A stretch of 64,000 nucleotides of DNA. Origin: Octopus vulgaris. Its lineage: Eukaryota. The stretch is taken from the NCBI GenBank assembly GCA_951406725.2, contig OX597823.1, positions 94,178,001 to 94,242,000 of the forward strand. Reading direction: 5' to 3'. The notes under the pieces were generated by a model. That model made no database searches. It saw nothing but the letters and a program-made list of their open reading frames with translations, and was not told the origin of the DNA. This document shows, piece by piece, positions 6,075 through 62,574 of the stretch (within the stretch, counting starts at the first letter, position 1; every line of letters starts with the position of its first letter). Both the position numbers and the translations under genes were made by a program.

Positions 6075-6901
6075 TAGTTTTATTTTTATTTTTATAGCGT
6101 GCTTTCACTTCACTACCGAGCGCAGCTCTGTGTGCCTTGGGTATGTGCTGTGATTTGTTGTGATGCTCTGATGGTTATTGTATGGAAAGTGTTCTGCGTA
6201 GGATGTGGGCAGTGCCTAGTAGTGCAATTTTCTGTATGTTATATGTGTTTGTAAGTCCTGGTGTTTTTGTTATGTATTTGTCTGAATATTTTTTTATCAT
6301 GCCTAATGCACCTACTATGATAGGAATTGTTTCTGTTTTCAGATTCCACATTCTAGTTACCTCTATTTCCAGGTCTTTGTATTTTGAGAGTTTCTCCATT
6401 TCTTTTAGAGACACGTTGTCATCTGCCGGTATTGATACATCAATTAAAAAGCATTTTTTTCTTCATGATCTCTGACAACTATATCTGGTCTGTTGGCCTT
6501 AATTTCTCTATCTGTGTGTATCGGCATATCCCAGAGTATGGTTGCTTTCTCGTTTTCTGTGACCTTTTCTGGTGTGTGCCTATACCATCTTTTTTCTGTT
6601 GTTATTCCATAATGTTGGCATAGCTTCCAATGTATGTAGGTTCCAACTCTGTCATGTCTGTGAATATATTCCTTCTTAGCCAGGACTGGGCAGCTAGAGA
6701 TAATATGATTTATTGTTTCTTGTCCATCTCCACATATTCTGCAGTTACTTGTAATATTTCTTTTCATTACATGTTTTTGGTAATTTCTGGTGGGGAGGCT
6801 TTGGTCTTGTGCTGCAATTAAAAATCCCTCTGTTTCTGCTTTGAGTCCTGAGCTTCTCAACCATTGCTGGGATTTTTCTTTGTCTATTTCTTTGCGTTTA
6901 G

Positions 6902-6905
<4 letters not shown>
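6071..6905 (-). mobile_element. R4/Dong-like retrotransposon, 5'-truncated young copy 1 (frameshifted), lineage A
   Basis: CRICGDGQETINHIISSC zinc finger, RHD, RPD..ID..K..KY RLE motifs split across ORFs 6444..6860 and 6175..6414; (TAA)n on both sides. Confidence 0.92.
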
Positions 6906-6970
<65 letters not shown>

Positions 6971-7039
6971 CTGTGGTATTGAGCAGAATATTTGCTGCAG
7001 CCCATCTTTTATACCAAGACAAAACAATGCACATGATAA

Positions 7040-7105
<66 letters not shown>

Positions 7106-7109
<4 letters not shown>

Positions 7110-8536
7110 TAGTTTTATTTTTATTTTTATAGCGTGCTTTCACTTCACTACCGAGCGCAGCTCTGTGTGCCTTGGGTATGTGCTGTGATTTGTTGTGATG
7201 CTCTGATGGTTATTGTATGGAAAGTGTTCTGCGTAGGATGTGAGCAGTGCCTAGTAGTGCAATTTTCTGTATGTTATATGTGTTTGTAAGTCCTGGTGTT
7301 TTTGTTATGTATTTGTCTGAATATTTTGTTATCATGCCTAATGCACCTACTATGATAGGAATTGTTTCTGTTTTCAGATTCCACATTCTAGTTACCTCTA
7401 TTTCCAGGTCTTTGTATTTTGAGAGTTTCTCCATTTCTTTTAGAGACACGTTGTCATTTGCCGGTATTGATACATCAATTAAAAAGCATTTTTTTTCTTC
7501 ATGATCTCTGACAACTATATCTGGTCTGTTGGCCTTAATTTCTCTATCTGTGTGTATCGGCATATCCCAGAGTATGGTTGCTTTCTCGTTTTCTGTGACC
7601 TTTTCTGGTGTGTGCCTATACCATCTTTTTTCTGTTGTTATTCCATAATGTTGGCATAGCTTCCAATGTATGTAGGTTCCAACTCTGTCATGTCTGTGAA
7701 TATATTCCTTCTTAGCCAGGACTGGGCAGCTAGAGATAATATGATTTATTGTTTCTTGTCCATCTCCACATATTCTGCAGTTACTTGTAATATTTCTTTT
7801 CATTACATGTTTTTGGTAATTTCTGGTGGGGAGGCTTTGGTCTTGTGCTGCAATTAAAAATCCCTCTGTTTCTGCTTTGAGTCCTGAGCTTCTCAACCAT
7901 TGCTGGGATTTTTCTTTATCTATTTCTTTTGCGTTTAGTTTAGTGCAGTATTTACCATGAAGGGGCTTTTCTTGCCATCGTTTTATCATGGTTCGTTGCT
8001 GTTCTGTTTTTAGTTTGGATTTCATTTGTTTTATAGCTTTTGTTGTTTCTTCATCTTCTTCTTCTTCTTCTTCATGTTTATTAGGTGGTATGATTTCTTG
8101 TTTGTATTTGTCAGCTTCCTTAAATACTGAGAACAGTTTTTTGTTTTGCTCGTGTTTTGCCGCTATCTGGATCAGTTTTCCTTCCTTCTGAAGTAGATAT
8201 TTTTGCAGTCCTATGGTGGTTATTTTATAGTAGTTTTCCAGCTGTATAAGGCCTCTACCACCTTCTATACGTTGTATATATAGTCTTTCTATGTCAGATT
8301 TTGGGTGATGCATCCTAGATCCTGTCATTATTTTTCTTGTTTTCCTATCTATTTTGGCCAGTTCATTTCGTGTCCAGTTAAGGATATTGTAGCTGTAACT
8401 TATAACTGGGACAGCTAAAGTGTTGATACCTATTATCTTGTTTTTAGCATTGAGCTCTGTTTTTAGTATTGATCTAACTCGTCTATAATATTCTTTTTTT
8501 TATTTTCTCTTTCATTTGTGTGTGTTGTGTCTTATC

Positions 8537-11159: not shown

Positions 11160-11731
11160 GATTAACTTTTGCTTTATGTCAATAATAATAATAAGCAGTG
11201 TCAAAAAGCAGCGCTAACTTCTCTACTTCCTCAAACGACAAATTGACAAGTTGGCGCCAAGTCTCACCCAGAGACCTCAAGAGACAACAGGTTGGAAGTT
11301 CACGTTGTTGTTATGTCTAGTGTGCCATATATTTGGGGGTTTTTTTGTGTTGTACTAGTGAATGTCTAATACATAATAAAAAAAATTTTTAAATTTAAAA
11401 AATTTGAAAAATTTGAAAAACTTTTGTTTTAAACCTTGGGATTACATAAAAGTATTTTGCGTAGGATATGAGCAGTTCCCATCAGCACTATCTTTTGAAT
11501 TTCTGCCATTTTGGGGTTTCCTGGTATCTGAGTTAGGTAGCAATCAGTCCCTTTCGCTATCATTCCCAGGGCACCTATGACAACAGGTATTGTTTTAGTC
11601 TTCAACTTCCACATTTTGCTGATTTCTATTTCAAGATCTTTATATTTGCTCAGTTTTTGGTAGGTCTTGACAGATACGTTTATATCGATTGTGACAATCA
11701 TATCAATGAGGAGGCATGTTCTTTGTCTGAA

Positions 11732-11732
<1 letters not shown>
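11160..11732 (-). mobile_element. R4/Dong-like RLE fragment with 3' UTR, lineage B
   Basis: CLLIDM...KLSKYKDLEIEISKMW...IQKIVLMGTAHILRK in ORF 11429..11842; (TAA)n flanks. Confidence 0.85.
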
Positions 11733-11805
<73 letters not shown>

Positions 11806-11995
11806 TAGCACGCCAGGGCCAAATGCTTAGCGACGAGTTCAAATTCCGCCAAGGTCGACATTACCTTTCATCCTTTCAGAGTCGCTGAAATAAGCACCAG
11901 GTGAGCACTGGGGTCGATGTAATAGACCTGGCCCTCCCACACAATTTCAGGGCCTGTAAATATAGTATAAGGATTATTGTTGTTATTACTATTAC

Positions 11996-29764: not shown

Positions 29765-30020
29765 GTTATGTTGTGACACGTCTATCGAATAACAATAAGA
29801 CTACAATATTTTGTCTCCACAAGAAACACCATAACAAATCGATCGTATTTATTAACAGATGGCTACACACATTCCACTCTTACAATAAACCATTTATTAG
29901 GTATAGAATAATGATTTGGTTACTGTATCTCTTATTGCACTCGTTAGTAGCTCAGTTAGAAACTTATCAAATTAATATTTCTAAATCTCACAAAGAGAGA
30001 TATTCAGCAACAGTACTTTG

Positions 30021-30344
30021 GAGTAAAGATTATTTGCCAACATAGCATGGCAGTCCTGGTTTAGGGCGAATGTTGCTGTAATTTAGCCCCATGAGACATC
30101 GTCTCCAGTTGGCTATACGACACGATCTGTGTCCTTATATTTTTGAACAAGGGAATATAGCACCCCCGCCCACCTCAAAAAGTATCTTTGTGTCGCGAGT
30201 GGGGGTGCTCAATCCTCTTGTTTGAAAATATGACACAGATCGTGTCGCATAGCCAGCTGGAGACAATGTCTCCTGGGGCTAAATTACAGCAACATTCGTC
30301 CTAAACCAGGACAGCCATGTTATGTTGGCAAATAATCTTTACTC
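30021..30344. mobile_element. Fold-back element (~150-bp arms), copy with deleted loop
   Basis: 30021-30169 is inverted with respect to 30197-30344; homologous to 48919-49279. Confidence 0.85.
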
Positions 30345-30435
30345 TAGTTAGAAACATTTGGCCATCGCAGAGCCTGAACGGACGCTTATAAGATAGTGGT
30401 TAACGACTTCATCCAATACCAATACATCATCATCA

Positions 30436-33471: not shown

Positions 33472-35040
33472 TATTTCAAAACATTTGCCATAAAGGCAGT
33501 ACACAGATTAAGTTAGCTTTCGGGCTGGACGAGGACATTAATGAAGTGAATGATAATGAAAGAAAGATGATAAGGATGGGAGAAGACAAAAAGCGCCCGC
33601 CGACTTTCGCTTCTCTAAAACATTGTTCTTTTTAAGGATAAACACAAAACGAGGTATTAAACCTCTTACAATTTTTCCAATTTTTGGATTTAGCAGTCCA
33701 TTATTAATAAAAATAAATACAAAACGAGGTATTAAACCTCTTACAATTTTTCAATTTTTGGACTTAGCAGTCCATTACTAATAATAACAGTTCAATAATT
33801 ACATATCGTCCTCGAAGTCGCTTGTGCCCGCGCCCTCCACCATCAACCACGCCTCCCTCAGAACGTAATCAAGTCCCGAGTCAGCGTCGCCCGGGACCAA
33901 TTTATAGTCTTCCTTGAGCTCCTTTAGCCCAAGCGTCACGTCGAACGTCACGACCTCCACAGCTACCTGCGGAGGCCATTCGGGGTCCTGTGTGAAGGCT
34001 AAAGGTGCTCCCTTGTGATGCTCTTCCATCACTTTTTCAATTTCTCCTCCTCTATAGAAGAGGACCAATACGTTCAGTTCTTTCGGTGGCGGCACAGTTC
34101 CCGCCAACGGTATTCCTTCTCTTGTCGGTGGCACAACCCCAACCGACGTAGTTCCGTGACATTCCGGTGCTACACTGACAGTCGGTAATGTCCCGTTTTT
34201 CTTCCTCTTTTTCTTTTTTTTTTCCCTTTTCAACTGAGGGAGGGTGCGTCTCCTCCGTGGCTGGAAGATTCGCCTTCCTCTCCTCATCCCTATTATCCTT
34301 TGGTGATCACCCATTTTTGCTCACCTTCCTCTTTCGGCCGCTGTTTGAGGAGTCCTCTGCTTTCTCGGCCGTTATCATTCCCTCTTCTAGAGGGGTTTTA
34401 CTTAACTGTTCCGGGATCCTATTTTGTTCCCTGGGGACAGTTCTTCTTTATGTGGCCGGACTCCAAGCACCGATGACACTTAGGGGGCGACCCTCAAGCA
34501 TCACCGGGTACCTGCACCCGGCCATTTTCAAAAAATCTGGAAGAACCAGATTGGCTGATTGGGTCCACAGGGTCAAAATTGCTTTTGACCCAACCCAAGC
34601 AGCCGCAGGAAGAACTTTTACATTAAGGAGCTTAGTTTCGCTGCCACCCAGACCCCGGCGGATAGTCTCCTCTATCCACTCGGGTTCTATGTCGGGTGGC
34701 AGACCGCAAATCCAAGCTTTCATCAATTTTTTTTTTGACGTGGGCAGGAATAAGATTTCCTTACCCTCCAGGGGTTTGCTAGCAAATTTGCAAGCCTCTT
34801 CAGGGGTGTCAAATAGCAACCACACCGTTGCATATTTGACACCCCTGGAAATGAATTTAATTGTTGGCAAATACTCTTCCAACTCCTTTTCAATTGCCGT
34901 CTTTTCGAATAGGGCGATGGTGTCGAGTGCCTTGGAGTAGGTTCTCAACACCACCGTCCTATCTTCACGGTCTTTTAACCACTTTTTAGGCGGTATGATC
35001 TCCCATTCCAAAAGTTTGTTATTTTTCATTGCCATGTTCT
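33470..35040 (-). mobile_element. L1/Tx1-type ORF1 (gag-like)-only retroelement, frameshifted
   Basis: From ATG at 35035: RRM-like ORF1 (..ICGLPPDI..LPDFL...YPVMLEGRP), then after a frameshift KCHRCLESGHIKKNCP (CCHC knuckle), C-terminus ending at 33799, ~330-bp UTR ending AATAAA at 33470; no ORF2. Confidence 0.75.
33639..33786. repeat. Tandem duplication of ~75-bp unit
   Basis: aaaacgaggtattaaacctcttacaattttt..ggatttagcagtccatta occurs twice. Confidence 0.9.
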
Positions 35041-35061
35041 TTTTTTGTTTTTTTTGGTGTG

Positions 35062-36052
35062 CTCCGTAACGAAGCAGTTCGGCAAAAGAGAATGATAGAA
35101 TGAGTACTAGGCTTATAAAAGAATATGTCCTGGAGTCGATTTGTTCGACTAAAGGTGGTGCTCCAGCATGACCACAGTCAAATGACTGAAACAAGTAAAA
35201 AGAGTAAAAAGAGAGTTGATTAATGAGAAATCTTTATTTTCTGCGTTTCAATCATTGGACTGCGTCCATTCTGGAGCACTGCCTGGAAGGGATTTAGTGG
35301 AACAAATCGACCCCATTACTTGCTTTCTTTTAAACCTGGTACTTATTTTATCAGTTTCTTTTAACGAGCCGCCTTGTTATGGAGACGTAAACAAACCGAC
35401 ATCATATGTGTGTGTGTGTGTGCGTGCGTGCGTGTGTGTGTGTGTACATATACACAATGGCTCCCACACAGTTTACCGTCACGAATTCTCTCAAAAGGCT
35501 TTGGTCGGTCCAGGGTTAGAGTAAAGGTAACTTGGCCAGGACTGAACTCGAAACCTCGTTGCAAAACGATTTTCTTAATCACACAGCGATGCCTGCGCTT
35601 ACGTTTACTTCAAATTACTTCAAATTACTTCTACATAACTATCTAAATATAACGTAATGTGCAAGTACGGAACAAAATTGCTGAGTATTAACGGAATAAC
35701 GCAGCTGTGGCCCGAGAAGAATTTAGTAAAAAAAATATAGGTTTTATTTTCCAAACTGAAATTCTTTGAAAATAATGGCATAGCAAGAAACAGCAGACAC
35801 GTGTTCATTAAATCACACCCCTACTGTATTAAAAAGGAAGGACACATTCAAAGTAGTCTTAGATACACTAACCTTTTACTTGCTTCACTCATTGGACAGC
35901 CGCCATCGTGGGGCAACGGATTTAAGGTTTAGTCGAACAATTCGATCCTTGTACTCATCCATTTTAAGCCTGGTACTTATTTTGTCGATACTTTTTCCGA
36001 ACTGTTAAGCTACGGGCACCTGAGGAAACGAATGCTGGATGTCAAAGACACG

Positions 36053-39879: not shown

Positions 39880-40650
39880 TTCACAGAACGTTCAATCTTG
39901 TTTGTCCTGGTAGATTCCGTGAGAGCGAAGACTAGCCTGCCGTCAGCAGTCTCACACGGTCTCTTTCCGTACATTATAAGCTTTGATACTTGGTTGTTAT
40001 TTATCGTGGGAGACATTCAACATCCAAGTACCAATGTCAATATCCTAGTTATTTCCAGTAGAGCAGGGTTTTTTTTCGCCTTGCTCTCATATCAATTCCG
40101 TTTTCTTCCACACGTTTCTCCAATTTGGTTGTTAATGCTCCGAGTGCTCTTACAACTACTAAAATGATATATACTCTCTTCATAGTCCATATTCTTGCAA
40201 TATCGTCTTTTAGTAGTCTGTACTTTTCAATTTTTTCTTGTTCTTTCTCACATCTGCCTGCATCTCCAAATGTTGCAATATCTGTGATCTTGGTTTCCTT
40301 TTTTTCTTTATCTATCACAACATTACCTGGTCTCTGAACATCGATTAGGGAGTCACATTGGATTGTAAAATCCCACAGTATCTTATATTCCCTGTTCTCG
40401 GGGACTCCTTCTGGTTCATGTTAGTACCATTTCCGTGCTGTTCAGGCAGTACTTTTCATATAGCCTCCAATGGACGAACTTAGCCACGTTATCGTGCCTC
40501 CTTTTGTAGTGCTTTTGGGCCAGCTTGATACACTCACTCACAATATGTGAGATTGTTTCGTTTCTGCTTCCACACATGCGACAAAGGGGCGATTCGCAAC
40601 TCTTATCTGTTTGAAATAATCCACTCATCCCCATTTCCCGCAAGCTGCTC
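39880..40650 (-). mobile_element. R4/Dong-like fragment (CCHC + RLE), lineage C
   Basis: CRMCGSRNETISHIVSEC..YKRRHDNVA and ITDIA...KIEKY in ORFs 40416 and 40049. Confidence 0.85.
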
Positions 40651-48179: not shown

Positions 48180-48918
48180 TAATAGTCCGCAACGCGCACT
48201 TGATAAAACTGCGTTTTGTGAAGCGTGGCTTAAGATGTGCAACCGGTAGAGACCTTTCTAAAGTTATGCATATCCTGTTGCGAAAGTTAGATCTAATCAT
48301 AAAAACACATGGCAGGATTTTCCAGTATTTCGAGCTTCTCAGATAAACCAACTCCGCAATCATGCAATCAGCTGGAAAATATGAAGTACATCTGTCAATA
48401 ATCTTCTAAGTTGCTGCTCGATGTTCATCTTCCTGCACCTTTAGGTCCAGGTAACTCAATACAGGGAAGTGAAATTATATCTTTTCTTGGCGCCCAAATG
48501 ATTACAGACGTTGATGGTAAAGTTACTGAAATTACAGTACTACTCCCCAGGTTTACTTTTCAGAATATATTTCACCATGATGACCTACCTTAGCCCATAA
48601 TAACCGACCCTACAATCAACCAATATGAAGCGACTTCGCAGGAGACCTGCAGGTGTCAATAATGTCAAAGTTCCATTTGTAACTGAAATATCATATTATG
48701 TAAAAGCTTGTGAAACTTTAATGCATTATTGAACCGTTAACTTGATTTAATTGTAGTTATGAACTCAATAGAATTCACTGCCTGTTGTTTCATTTCGCTG
48801 CTTCACATAAACGCATTGTCGGCGGGGGCTTGGTCTATTGACAAATTGAGGACAAACTGTTAAAAATAGAGAAATACCATTTACTCTCTTATCTGAAAGA
48901 GCCAACTGTTTTGACAAT

Positions 48919-49279
48919 GGAATAAAGATTGTTTACCAACATAACATGGCGGTTCTGGTTAAGAACGAATGTTGCTGTAATTTAGCCCCAGGAGACATCA
49001 TCTCCAGCTGGCTATACGATATGGTCTGTGTCCTTATATTTTCGAACAGGGAAATCTAGCACTCCCACTCAGCTCAAAACAATATCTGTGTATCGCGATT
49101 TCCGGGTCATTTCCCTTCATCAACACAGAGCGGGGGTGCTAGATTCCCTTGTTTGAAAATATAAGGACACAGATCGTGTTGTATAGCCAGCTGGAGACGA
49201 TGTTTCCTGGGGCTAAATTACAGCAACATTCGTCCTAAACCAGGACTGTCATGTTATGTTGGCAAACAATCTTTACTCC
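48919..49279. mobile_element. Fold-back element (~150-bp arms) with hammerhead-containing loop
   Basis: 48919-49070 is inverted with respect to 49128-49279; homologous to 30021-30344. Confidence 0.88.
49085..49129 (-). ncRNA. Minimal type-I hammerhead ribozyme variant (U3)
   Basis: Minus: tctgtg TTGATGA a ggg aaatga ccc g GAAA tcgcga TA cacaga; 6-bp stem I, palindromic stem III. Confidence 0.7.
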
Positions 49280-50284
49280 AAAATACTGTTGCTGAGATTT
49301 ACAAATAGCAATTGTTTTGACAATGTTATGTAAATGTGATTGGTATTATAGTTCTTCTGAAATGTAATCTTTGTAACAAGCTCATTATAGTTCTTTCCTT
49401 CTTGTTTTTCGTTCAATCAAAGGAGTTATAACTATCACCAGTTTAGGTACATCTGTCGCGAGTAGGAGGAGGGGAAAACCTATCCTTTGGCCAGAAACTT
49501 TCTGGTCTAAGGATATTGTGCATGTACAGTTTGTGTATTACATGTTGCTATTTATTTATTTATTTATTTATTGTTGCTGATGTTGTTCTAACTCTTGCTC
49601 TTGTTACTGATGTATCGACCAAGGTGAGCCGGGATCGAACGAGACATGTTCAAAAGCAACTAGCGCCTTACTAACTCCTTTTAGTGTAACATGAACGGTT
49701 ATGCTGCATAATATGTTCCAATTTGCAATATGGCGTGTAAGGTTTTGTAGGATAGGCTCCGGCAATGGGCCGTACACGTATTAACGGTTGTCGACGAAGG
49801 TGACGACAACGACAACGACAATGACAGCGATGGGTGAGGAGATGATGATGATGATGACGACATTTCCGGTCTCAACATCGAACTTTATAATCTAGCACCC
49901 CTTTATGGACTTTGCCCTGTTCCTATTCAAGAGGGTAGGACGTGATTTGGGGAAACATTACGTGCCATATATTTCAGGTTAAGCCAAGACGTAGATGAAT
50001 CATCGTGGCTGAGTGACGGATGTACGTCAGGATAAACATCCTCATTATGAATCTGTTAAGGTGTGCCGTGCATACGCGATGACAAAATATCACATTAAAA
50101 TGCAACACAAAGACAATATACATCATGGGTGTGAGTGGGGAGGGTCGTGTGTGTATGTGCGCGCGCACGCGCGTGTGTGTAAATTGATGGCACGTTGTAA
50201 TGATGTTGCTTTGACTCATGAATCGAATAACCAAGGGGAAAATAATATAAAATTCAAAAGTCAAAAGCAGTTATATATACTTAT

Positions 50285-57059: not shown

Positions 57060-58887
<1,828 letters not shown>

Positions 58888-59645
58888 CAACCGGTGTTGT
58901 GTTTACTTTCTCGTAACTTTGCGGTTCGGTAAAACGATCGACAGAATAAGTACAGGCTTAAAAACTAGAAATAAGTACTGGGATCGATACAAGCGACTAA
59001 AAATGTTTCAAGGTGGTGCCCCAGCATGGCCGTAGTCTAATTACTGAACCAAGTGTAAATATACACGATAAACGATTTTTCGCAGTCTGTTTTTATTTTT
59101 TGTTTCTTGTTTCTTTTCAGTTTTTTCTTTTACTTCCTTTTATTTTTGGTCTTTCTTTAGTATCAAGGAAGGTGCAGCGCTTTAGGTTTTTGCAAGACCC
59201 AGAAATTGGGTCGATCGCTACCATTAAGTTTTCGTTTAAACAGTTGTGATTTGGCCCGTACAGTAATGATGTCCAGAGAGAATATTCTAGATGGCTGAGG
59301 TTCGGGTGTAGAAAGGAATGGGTGTAATGTTTTGCATCGAGCGAGAGTAGTTTGGCACAACATGATGATGAAAGGAAAAGCTGTGTGAAGATATAAGACC
59401 ATGAAAGTCTGTGTCTTAAAGGCCATCATTGATGATATTTTGTCGTGGGCCGAGAAAGACAATTCTAGCTGAACAACCAGCAAAAATGATTGGTTTATAG
59501 TGATCAAATATTCGGGCCGCACATTAGCTCACTCCCTCCATCAAATCGACGAGAGAAATAAAAGCGAAAAGATCAGCCACGAGGATTGCAGAACTTTCTG
59601 ATAAATATAAGAACTACGAGTTCAACGAAATGGATAAAAAGACTC

Positions 59646-59950: not shown

Positions 59951-62574
59951 ATGTCTATTCACATTGGTTGTGTAAATGGTTGTGGCCTGATGTCTAGCTG
60001 GAAGTAAGGGCGCTTCCTAAATGACATCAAATCAAGAAAATGTGATTGTTGCAACGGAAACCCGGGTGAAGGGGCCAAGAGATCTGCTCCCCCTCCTGAA
60101 CAGCTATGAGAAATACGTTTCTCCGAATCGGGCGGGAGGTGGTAGTGGGGTGTTGTTTCTACTAAAAAGAAACCGGGTAGCCGAGAAAAAGTTTTTTTTT
60201 CTGATCCAGAAGGCAGATAAACCACTTGAGACAACAGGCTGAATCGCGCAAGCACAGTCGCCAAGTATCGATGGTCAACCCTATCAAAAGCTTTAGACTG
60301 GTCCAGATGTACCTTTTCACCACCTTAGCCAGATTTATTACCAACCCTCTCTATGGTATAGCGAATAAGGTGGAGATTATCCTGAATGATTCTGCCTGTG
60401 ATGGCACATGTCTTTGCCTCCCCGACAATACCATTCGCGACACGCAGGGAGTAGTGACGTTAGTCAGAAAGGACCCGGACAAAGGGACATTTTAGATAAC
60501 TTCAGGCCCATCACTCTGTGAAACGCAGAAGTGAAGATTTAGGCCAAGGTCTTAGCAAAAATGTTGGCGCGTGCCGCAAATGGTATTGTCGGGAGGCACA
60601 GACATGTGCCATCACAGGCAGAACCATTCAGGATAATCTCCTCGCTATACCATAGAGAAGGTTGGTAATAAATTTGGCTAAGGTGGCAAAAAGGTACATC
60701 TGGACCAGTCTAAAGCTTTTGATAGGATTGACCATCGATACTTGGCGACAGTGCTTGCACGATTCAGCCTAGGCCTTGGCTTCCTCAAGTGGTTTATCGC
60801 TTTGTACCACAACATTGAGTCGATAGTTCGGGTGAACGGTTTCCTTTCGAAGCCGTTCTGCATCAAGCGCTCGGTTCGTCAAGGATGTCCGCTCTCACCA
60901 CTTTTGCATGTGGTGGCTTTTGAGCCCCTACTCCGATGGTTGAGTGGCATTCCGAGAGAATCAGGTTTAACGGAGCTTGTTACCGCTTACGCGGACGATA
61001 TCACTATCAGCGTAACCACAATGCCACGCCTACGTGAAGAGGGTAAGGCTATTGAGGTTTACGAGACGGTGGCAGGAGCAAAGATCAACCGGGAAAAGTC
61101 GGTCGGCTTGCAGCTCGGCATGTGGGTTGGCAAGTCGATGCCTTCCGACAGTGTTGTTGGCGCTGGAAGGAGGGACCGGTTAAATTGCTGGGAGTTTGGT
61201 TTGGACAAGGCCTACAGATAGAGAAGAACTGGGCAGAGGTTTCGAGCAGGGTGGCTGCAGTAGTTAAAACCTGGTCTTGGTGGTGGCTATCCCTGAAAGG
61301 GATGGCAGAGGTGATCAGTGTGTTTATCGCATTGGTCATTACCTACCGCCTGACCGTCGTGCCCTGTCCGAATTCGTGGTCGATCAGGCTGGAGAGACAG
61401 CTCTTTCGCTTTTTGTGGAAGGGCAGGTCGCCACTTGTGAAACATTCTGTTGTCAAAAGCCGTTAAAGGGAGGTTTAGTGATACCTTGGCTAATGATGCG
61501 CAGGCATGCGTTGAGGTTGAGGCAACTCTGGATTTTCCTGGATGGTGAACGGGTGTGAGCTCCGATGGCCAGGCAAATGTTTCCCGAGTTCAAAGGTTTT
61601 TGCGAACAGGAAGTCTGGTGTTTTCGTAGACCGAGGTCGAATGAATGGCATAAAGAGTGCCGTAAGGTCTTCTTGCTATTCCGGCGCTCGGGCAACGCCA
61701 GCGGTGGAGGTTCTACACGAATTTTATGTAGTGGGTTGGTAGAGTCTGAATGTGACGATGGTCTGGAGGCGACTCTAGGCCTCGGGTTTGCTCAACTGCA
61801 TAGCCTGTTCCATAATACATTCGGGTTGAGAACGTTGGACAACTTCCTAAAGTCTTGACCTGGCAATGTTACAAAGGTGCCTTGTCCGTTTGGGATAAGC
61901 TCGCAAGACATGGTAAACGTCAGTCTCCGACCTGTCCAAGATGCGAGGGAGACAAGGAAACCGTCCCTCACGCTCTTGCCCAGTGTCCGGAGATATTAGA
62001 AATGTGTGTTTATGCTGAACACCTGTTGTCCGGCGAAGGAAGAGTATGGCTGTCGACTGAGTCAATTGTAAAAATTGACCCACCGGAAGTTTTAACAAAC
62101 GAAGGTAAGAATTGTTCTCTCACGGTTGTAGCAACAGCGAAAGAGGCAGTATGAAGACTAGGATAAAAGGGATTAAGACAGGCAACTTTATCTCCGGCCA
62201 CGATTTACGATCATTTTTTACCCTTCATTTGAAAAGGAAGTTGTGGCTGGAGAAGAGGTGTCTGTCGGAGAGTATGTTCAAAAAGAGATGGAAGCATGCT
62301 GCACGAGTGTTGTGCGTGCAAGAAACCGTGTGAATAAGTTATAAAAGAAAAACAAAAAATGGTACCAGCGATAGATTGGGATTTGTGGGGTCGGAGCGTG
62401 GCCTGATCATCGCTATATTTGTGTTGTCTTTGTATTGTTAATTTCATTCGATTTTTTAAATATTTTATATAATTTTTATATTCATATTTAATGAAAAATC
62501 GTAGCGCATTACTGATCCCAATCAGTTGTTTTGTCCATTTCTGTGTTTGGCCCCCTGTGGGCAATAAAGAAATT
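59951..62574 (+). pseudogene. L1/Tx1-like LINE ORF2 pseudogene (APE start, RT, CCHC) with 3' UTR
   Basis: MSIHIGCVNGCGL..VIVATETR..GSGVLFLL (APE N-terminus); NFRPITL, DQSKAFDR, SVRQGCPLSPLL, AYADDIT (RT); CPRCEGDKETVPHALAQC; multiple stops and frameshifts. Confidence 0.9.

Follow-up and report, generated by a model that had tools for sequence, protein, structure and literature searches.

The fold-back insertion at 48920-49312 of the window (the whole 64,000-nucleotide stretch of Octopus vulgaris DNA analysed here) is very probably a decayed, ORF-less hammerhead repeat, that is a non-LTR retrozyme, likely to have been pasted in trans by an endonuclease-positive Penelope-like element (PLE), and its hairpin is likely a by-product of integration. 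The ribozyme stands in the loop only because one of the two head-to-head copies is ~60 nt longer at its 5' end. The value of the finding lies in the mechanistic footprint of the family to which this insertion belongs and not in the single locus.

The insertion in the window

The features of the insertion and of its relatives in the window are given in Table 1. An earlier sequence-only reading had recognized two inverted arms of ~150 bp, and these are indeed 153 nt each with 135 complementary positions. The extent given there, 48919..49279, fell short of the real, TSD-bounded insertion, however, since the one-sided tail, found here on the right arm only, and the TSD had been missed; the search for TSDs that it had proposed did return an exact 13-bp repeat. 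Its spacer of ~57 nt, described as nearly all minimal hammerhead, has that length, but the motif covers 43 of the 57 nt and its geometry is canonical metazoan type I rather than the minimal form of PLEs. The second family member announced 19 kb away is likewise present, although it lacks the catalytic core. The absence of coding capacity also stood, the longest stop-free stretch in the unit being 47 aa / 73 aa.

Table 1. Coordinates of the insertion, of a second family member and of a PLE in the window
Feature	Position	Strand	Remark
Left target-site duplication (TSD), 13 bp, TGTTTTGACAATG	48907..48919	+	exact repeat at 49313-49325
Right TSD, 13 bp	49313..49325	+	exact repeat of 48907-48919
Complete insertion, head-to-head pair of 350-nt unit copies, each truncated at its 5' end	48920..49312	.	
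Long copy, unit -39 to ~+172 (cut site = 0), short end S1, bears the hammerhead	48920..49129	-	
Left hairpin arm, 153 nt	48918..49070	.	135 complementary to right arm
Spacer, 57 nt	49071..49127	.	part of the long copy without mirror in the short copy
Right arm = short inverted copy, begins at ~unit +21, 153 nt	49128..49280	+	
One-sided tail towards long end S2 (+224)	49281..49312	+	internal deletion
Type I hammerhead motif, predicted cut 49091/49090	49085..49129	-	structure only
Second family insertion, head-to-head arms [-6,+220] + [+21,+170]	29964..30345 (about)	.	without hammerhead core
TSD of second insertion, 10 bp	29954-29963 and 30346-30355		
5'-truncated copy of a very young PLE	57736-58902, 3' region to ~57416	-	

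The 48920-49312 copy folds as a long rod with the hammerhead motif in the loop. Its arms differ in 17 of 148 aligned columns and none of these mismatches is compensated, so that the two arms decayed independently. The left junction (48250-48947) was found in DNA contigs of two further organisms, B and C, with 8 differences over 698 bases, and the insertion is thus common to those samples; an empty site was not seen in the B and C contigs. Taken by itself, this locus is probably a decayed head-to-head insertion that is inert.

A family built on one 350-nt unit

The 2.8 Gb host genome was searched with a 22-nt arm probe, which gave 1,691 exact matches and none for the reversed control. Family copies diverge by 4.1% at non-CpG and 24% at CpG positions, and at 4.1% divergence the 1,691 matches correspond to a computed ~4,300 arms, from which we estimate 2,000-2,500 insertions in the genome. 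Loci were collected with six probes and one single match, most being chosen by their likeness to the probe, and 171 distinct insertions were left after removal of 30 PLE loci, 11 minisatellite matches, 4 regions retrieved twice and duplicates.

All 171 insertions map on a single 350-nt unit, reaching from -126 to +224 around the cut site, with a GC content of 41% and without an ORF for RT plus GIY-YIG. The predicted circular fold of the unit is compact and highly self-paired, with -119 kcal/mol as compared with -76 +/- 5 kcal/mol for 60 shuffles (z -8.1). Where a segment reaches -126, it is preceded by the unit's own tail end in 63 of 65 cases and by family sequence in the other 2, and an ORF was found upstream of -126 in none of the 65 segments. 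Tandem pairs at a period of ~350 nt numbered 38 (49 matches less the 11 from a minisatellite) and the longest run held ~3 units (about 2.6-3); no long array occurred among the exact-motif matches. Two consecutive motifs with intact core were present in four loci (L117, L215, L228 and L235).

Some irregularities of distribution were also seen. At 126.03 Mb of contig C2 (L217-L227) a 25-bp minisatellite of >1.5 kb consists of units that match part of the element arm. In L032 (1388-1500) and L056 (1383-1500) the family fragments begin at -59, right after the same ~100-nt stretch of another repeat, and the other half of the element is absent within ~9-10 kb upstream in both. The copies are spread unevenly on contig C1, with 36 of the first 100 listed probe matches in the first 7 Mb and further clusters of matches near 103-112 Mb and 201-203 Mb.

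The hammerhead motif

A motif scan of both strands of the window returned a sole hammerhead match, on the minus strand at 49129-49085, and the parts named for it in the sequence-only reading (a 6-bp stem I, the UUGAUGA/GAAA core and a palindromic stem III) are all there. In the family motif the 6-bp helix I continues into an internal loop and an outer helix, three G-C pairs lie over an A.G apposition in the short helix II, whose loop has 6 nt, and the 2-bp helix III is palindromic and predicted to pair well as a dimer. Judged by structure, each unit thus carries a type I hammerhead that conforms to the canonical metazoan geometry (PMC4209133) apart from the atypical A.G at 10.1/11.1, which takes the place of the usual pair G10.1-C11.1. 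The exact core pattern is kept in 50 family copies. Rfam gave 225 matches for the window, and the 150 of them that were listed include no hammerhead; a near-majority family copy had no hammerhead match there.

Core position 3 is C in 90 of 101 family copies and U in the copy at 48920-49312, where G8 is unchanged and the outer part of helix I was lost through the junction. The changes C3G and G8C abolish cleavage of a PLE hammerhead, according to the available part of PMC11167929. On U3 opposite G8 no paper was found, and the available part of PMC7151607 is silent on it; we infer that U3 reduces the activity of this copy.

The family is similar to dimer-type hammerheads in that its palindromic helix III is predicted to let it act as a dimer, but differs from these in the 6-bp helix I with internal loop and outer helix, in the short helix II with its 6-nt loop and in the A.G apposition. 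For dimer-type hammerheads, motif pairs 100-700 bp apart on opposite strands have been published. For the covariation suggested earlier as a check on the stems, no evidence came to light. A candidate compensatory pair at +129/+135 (read variants at ~21-29%; sister subfamily) was rejected, its motif having one genomic match, no more than the control, and it is therefore no evidence of covariation. These read variants may reflect editing or the dominance of a few loci, or may come from another species.

Insertion footprint

The 171 insertions comprise 136 head-to-head pairs, 35 in a single orientation and not one tail-to-tail pair. Their outer ends cluster at two places 52 nt apart, S1 (~+172) and S2 (+224), and among the 106 fold-backs with both ends at these places 100 have one of each, as compared with five S1/S1 and one S2/S2 (p ~1e-23 against independence). 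The same holds for 15 of 17 in a position-ordered sample, while 30 of the 136 fold-backs have an end away from S1 and S2. An exact TSD of 10-16 nt flanks 34 of 95 fold-backs and none of 95 mismatched-flank controls. Microhomology of at least 3 nt was scored at 15 of 87 junctions against 5.5%, a moderate enrichment from a noisy scoring, and the same noisy method scored extra bases at 54 of 87.

In contrast to these fixed outer ends, the inner ends, that is the fold-back junctions, scatter between copies. Of 29 arm-probed loci, 4 had the whole hammerhead confined to one arm, 5 had it partly mirrored, 6 had it truncated and 12 lacked it, with 2 loci not folded back; in a position-ordered sample of 24 the same classes, in that order, held 5, 4, 2, 8 and 5. 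That the unit of the family is a hairpin with the ribozyme exposed in its loop, as the sequence-only reading proposed, is thus not supported. Some junctions do recur, for example -48/+42 and -21/+7, and carry the tail on either arm (L008 and L023 as against L028 and L084; L003 and L017 as against L006 and L012), which argues for independent origins at short complementary patches, whose complementarity values are maxima over +/-3 offsets. Identity between arms is 91.1% within an insertion and 90.5% between insertions.

PLE insertions in which the inverted copy is 5'-truncated, only one side bears a tail and the TSD is long have already been described in the available parts of PMC8557442 and PMC3846280, so that the architecture is not the undescribed one it was first taken for. 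The available part of PMC11167929 further documents a PLE protein that in vitro nicks and extends both strands, with two internal RT start sites bounding the tail. As excerpted from these three sources, the complex insertions of endonuclease-positive PLEs resemble the present family in the head-to-head arrangement with a TSD of ~8-16 bp, in a hammerhead upstream of both ends and in short complementarity at the junction. They differ in that the family is without an RT/GIY-YIG ORF, has a tail of 52 nt as opposed to 30-40, and bears a canonical and not a minimal hammerhead. What had been suspected at the outset, a non-autonomous hammerhead-bearing retroelement tied to PLEs or retrozymes, is well supported by the ORF-less unit, the type I motif and the PLE-type ends.

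Variants shared between sister arms

At the polymorphic position +171 the two arms of an insertion agree in 37 of 46 cases. Rare variants are common to sister arms in 29 of 725 columns, compared with 1.2% between loci, and over all insertions 105 shared variants were counted where ~18 were expected, which speaks for one template per insertion. A>G outnumbers T>C among the shared variants (31 vs 15) and is balanced with it among the private ones (186 vs 183; p 0.04). On the hammerhead strand, every one of the six variants shared in L188 is A>G, as are four of six in L196. A source locus with old edits could produce the same sharing. Tandem neighbours share 23 of 262 variants. They carry different alleles in 4 of 15 cases for position +171 and in 2 of 10 for +208, which counts against a single circle as template since this is not what a single circle predicts.

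RNA reads

Three cDNA runs of a further organism, A, were mapped on one monomer using ~6% of each run; organism A is possibly another species, and neither its DNA nor its RNA runs extend over the flank of 48920-49312. Family reads numbered 1,322-1,728 per 11.5-12.9 million, in libraries of a kind that cannot show a circle. They were about equal in both mate directions, crossed the tandem junction and held many strand-switch joints. Of the read ends at the cut site that the sequence-only reading had proposed as a check, no pile-up was present in the three runs, and the reads fit read-through of scattered copies. Variant places in the reads amounted to 31-32 for A>G and 21-29 for T>C, against 9 and 8 in genomic copies. 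This excess hints at editing and only hints at it, since the DNA of organism A does not cover the locus flank and organism A may be another species. Of the reads on the monomer L114:1542-1891, 45% show C in place of A6 of the core, and the family reads of organism A may be dominated by editing or by a small number of expressed loci.

Proposed mechanism and alternatives

In the mechanism that we consider, an RT/endonuclease dimer of a PLE would act in trans and nick both strands of the target with a stagger. Both target 3' ends would then prime reverse transcription on a single RNA, the first starting from S1 and the other from S2, and the two cDNAs would meet and be joined by short complementarity, leaving inverted arms, a one-sided tail and a TSD. 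Dual priming of this kind on one RNA, with joining of the cDNAs, appears to us a reasonably probable account of the footprint. The template may have been an RNA that was circularised by ligation after hammerhead cleavage, a point on which we see the balance as even. The cDNAs cross the cut site freely, which calls for an uncut RNA or a ligated circle, and a circle is suggested because the cDNAs run through this site and reach ~2.6-3 units, although long arrays were lacking among the matches seen. More tentative is the full scheme, by which the dimer would prime both strands on one circular retrozyme RNA at sites 52 nt apart, join the cDNAs head to head and at times fix A-to-I edits in both arms.

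The strongest competitor, although unlikely, accepts the same family but attributes the inversion to self-priming on antisense RNA or to a template switch, and the tail to endonuclease resolution, with linear tandem transcripts as templates. Both routes are proposed in the available parts of PMC3846280 and PMC8557442, and they would be served by the quasi-palindromes and short complementarity at some junctions, by family reads in both directions and by the short genomic tandems at hand as sources. That 100 of 106 fold-backs pair an S1 end with an S2 end does not, however, follow from this account alone. In vitro, both strands are primed and the tail is bounded by RT start sites (PMC11167929, available part), and the runs of A>G shared on the hammerhead strand likewise speak against it. 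Quite improbable is a derivation from an unsampled autonomous PLE, of which the copies would be the stumps, reduced by 5' truncation to pLTR plus tail. Their anatomy is that of the PLE insertions described in the accessible text of PMC3846280 and PMC8557442, and just 171 of the estimated 2,000-2,500 insertions were examined, but upstream of -126 the tail of the unit itself recurs in 63 of 65 segments and the end of an ORF in none, the PLE protein matches near the family are two unrelated fragments hundreds of bases off, and the hammerhead geometry is canonical type I.

Dual priming on a retrozyme RNA is also to be weighed against the earlier reading, by which the fold-back RNA itself is mobile or functional and cleavage of the hammerhead in its loop gives dsRNA or primer ends. 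The rod predicted for the 48920-49312 copy, the recurrence of some junctions and reads with excess A>G and T>C, as editing of dsRNA would give, would suit it. We hold it to be very improbable, since the scatter of junctions already contradicts a fold-back unit: the hammerhead is absent or truncated in 18 of 29 loci and whole in one arm only in the few loci given above, the recurrent junctions arose independently, the arms are hardly more alike within than between insertions and show no compensated change at 48920-49312, and that copy has U3 and lost its outer helix I. A MITE- or Foldback-like DNA transposon, in which long terminal inverted repeats enclose an unconserved loop, would account for long inverted arms, high copy number and the lack of an ORF. 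It is contradicted, to the point of being practically dismissed, by ends that differ by a 52-nt tail and by TSDs that vary (exact at 10-16 nt in 34 of 95), as well as by scattered inner ends and by units that also lie head to tail.

Retrozymes and PLEs compared

With metazoan non-LTR retrozymes, as treated in the available parts of PMC7229834 and 10.64898/2026.07.22.740005, the family shares an ORF-less unit of 350 nt (350-390 in mussel, 330/350 in axolotl), one type I hammerhead per unit with a short palindromic helix III, a compact predicted circle, GC below 50%, a TSD of >4 bp, tandem repeats within 150-450 bp and an occurrence as monomers or in short tandem runs. In these sources the axolotl motif HHR_Amex2 is likewise mismatched at the base of helix II. 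The family departs from those retrozymes by being mostly head-to-head with less than one unit per arm, by its two fixed 3' ends and one-sided tail and by the lack of any long array among the matches seen. Abundant monomeric circular RNA is a retrozyme feature in the same excerpts; for the family, the cDNA reads seen here are modest in number.

The word 'inverted' does not occur in the available part of PMC7229834, and in that of 10.64898/2026.07.22.740005 it figures only within a reference title; the term 'head-to-head' is absent from the papers listed in the literature search. Retrozymes and the PLE footprint are each known, and what may be new is the two-end footprint of PLEs on a retrozyme, which was not found in the literature searched, a body of text with most subscription papers and supplements outside its scope. 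Mobilisation of animal retrozymes by PLEs has been proposed from co-occurrence and phylogeny (PMC7229834; 10.64898/2026.07.22.740005, both in their available parts), and the accessible text of PMC11167929 and PMC8557442 calls the steps behind the inversions and tails of PLEs still unvalidated. The family offers a small and concrete template for testing dual priming, namely an ORF-less 350-nt substrate with two mapped ends, the 100/106 rule and edit-like marks common to the two arms. If true, circular dual priming would account for why PLE insertions in general contain an inverted copy and bear a tail on one side, and the family would provide direct evidence, at the genomic level, that animal retrozymes are mobilised by PLEs. 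Its thousands of fold-backs may also supply double-stranded RNA for editing, of which there is only a hint.

The young PLE and other elements of the window

The search for PLE ORFs adjoining the arm sequence, another of the earlier suggestions, yielded nothing upstream of -126 in the 65 segments, and the PLE fragments near L009 and L047, considered as partner, proved to be unrelated separate elements. The window itself harbours a copy of a very young PLE family; of 27,735 candidates, the 106 that were scored are 96-100% identical at the protein level, and open frames of ~811 aa occur elsewhere. Its Cys-rich linker suggests that this PLE may be Neptune-like. Its ORF in the window matched 0 Pfam families. 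It has a minimal hammerhead-like motif of its own at 57605-57571, with U3 opposite G8 or A8 depending on the subfamily. In 30 loci its ends were long in 15 and short in 15, and two inverted pairs had one of each. No DNA shared by this PLE family and the retrozyme family was detected at E up to 1 in the 30 loci, and the PLE is flanked by TA repeats whereas the retrozyme family mostly is not; the young PLE therefore serves as an internal control and not as the partner. Elsewhere in the window LINE-like ORF fragments lie at 6444-8499, 11429-11860, 34448-35233, 40049-40420 and 59959-61466, which by eye are C-terminal parts of RT, an ORF1-like stretch and RT cores.
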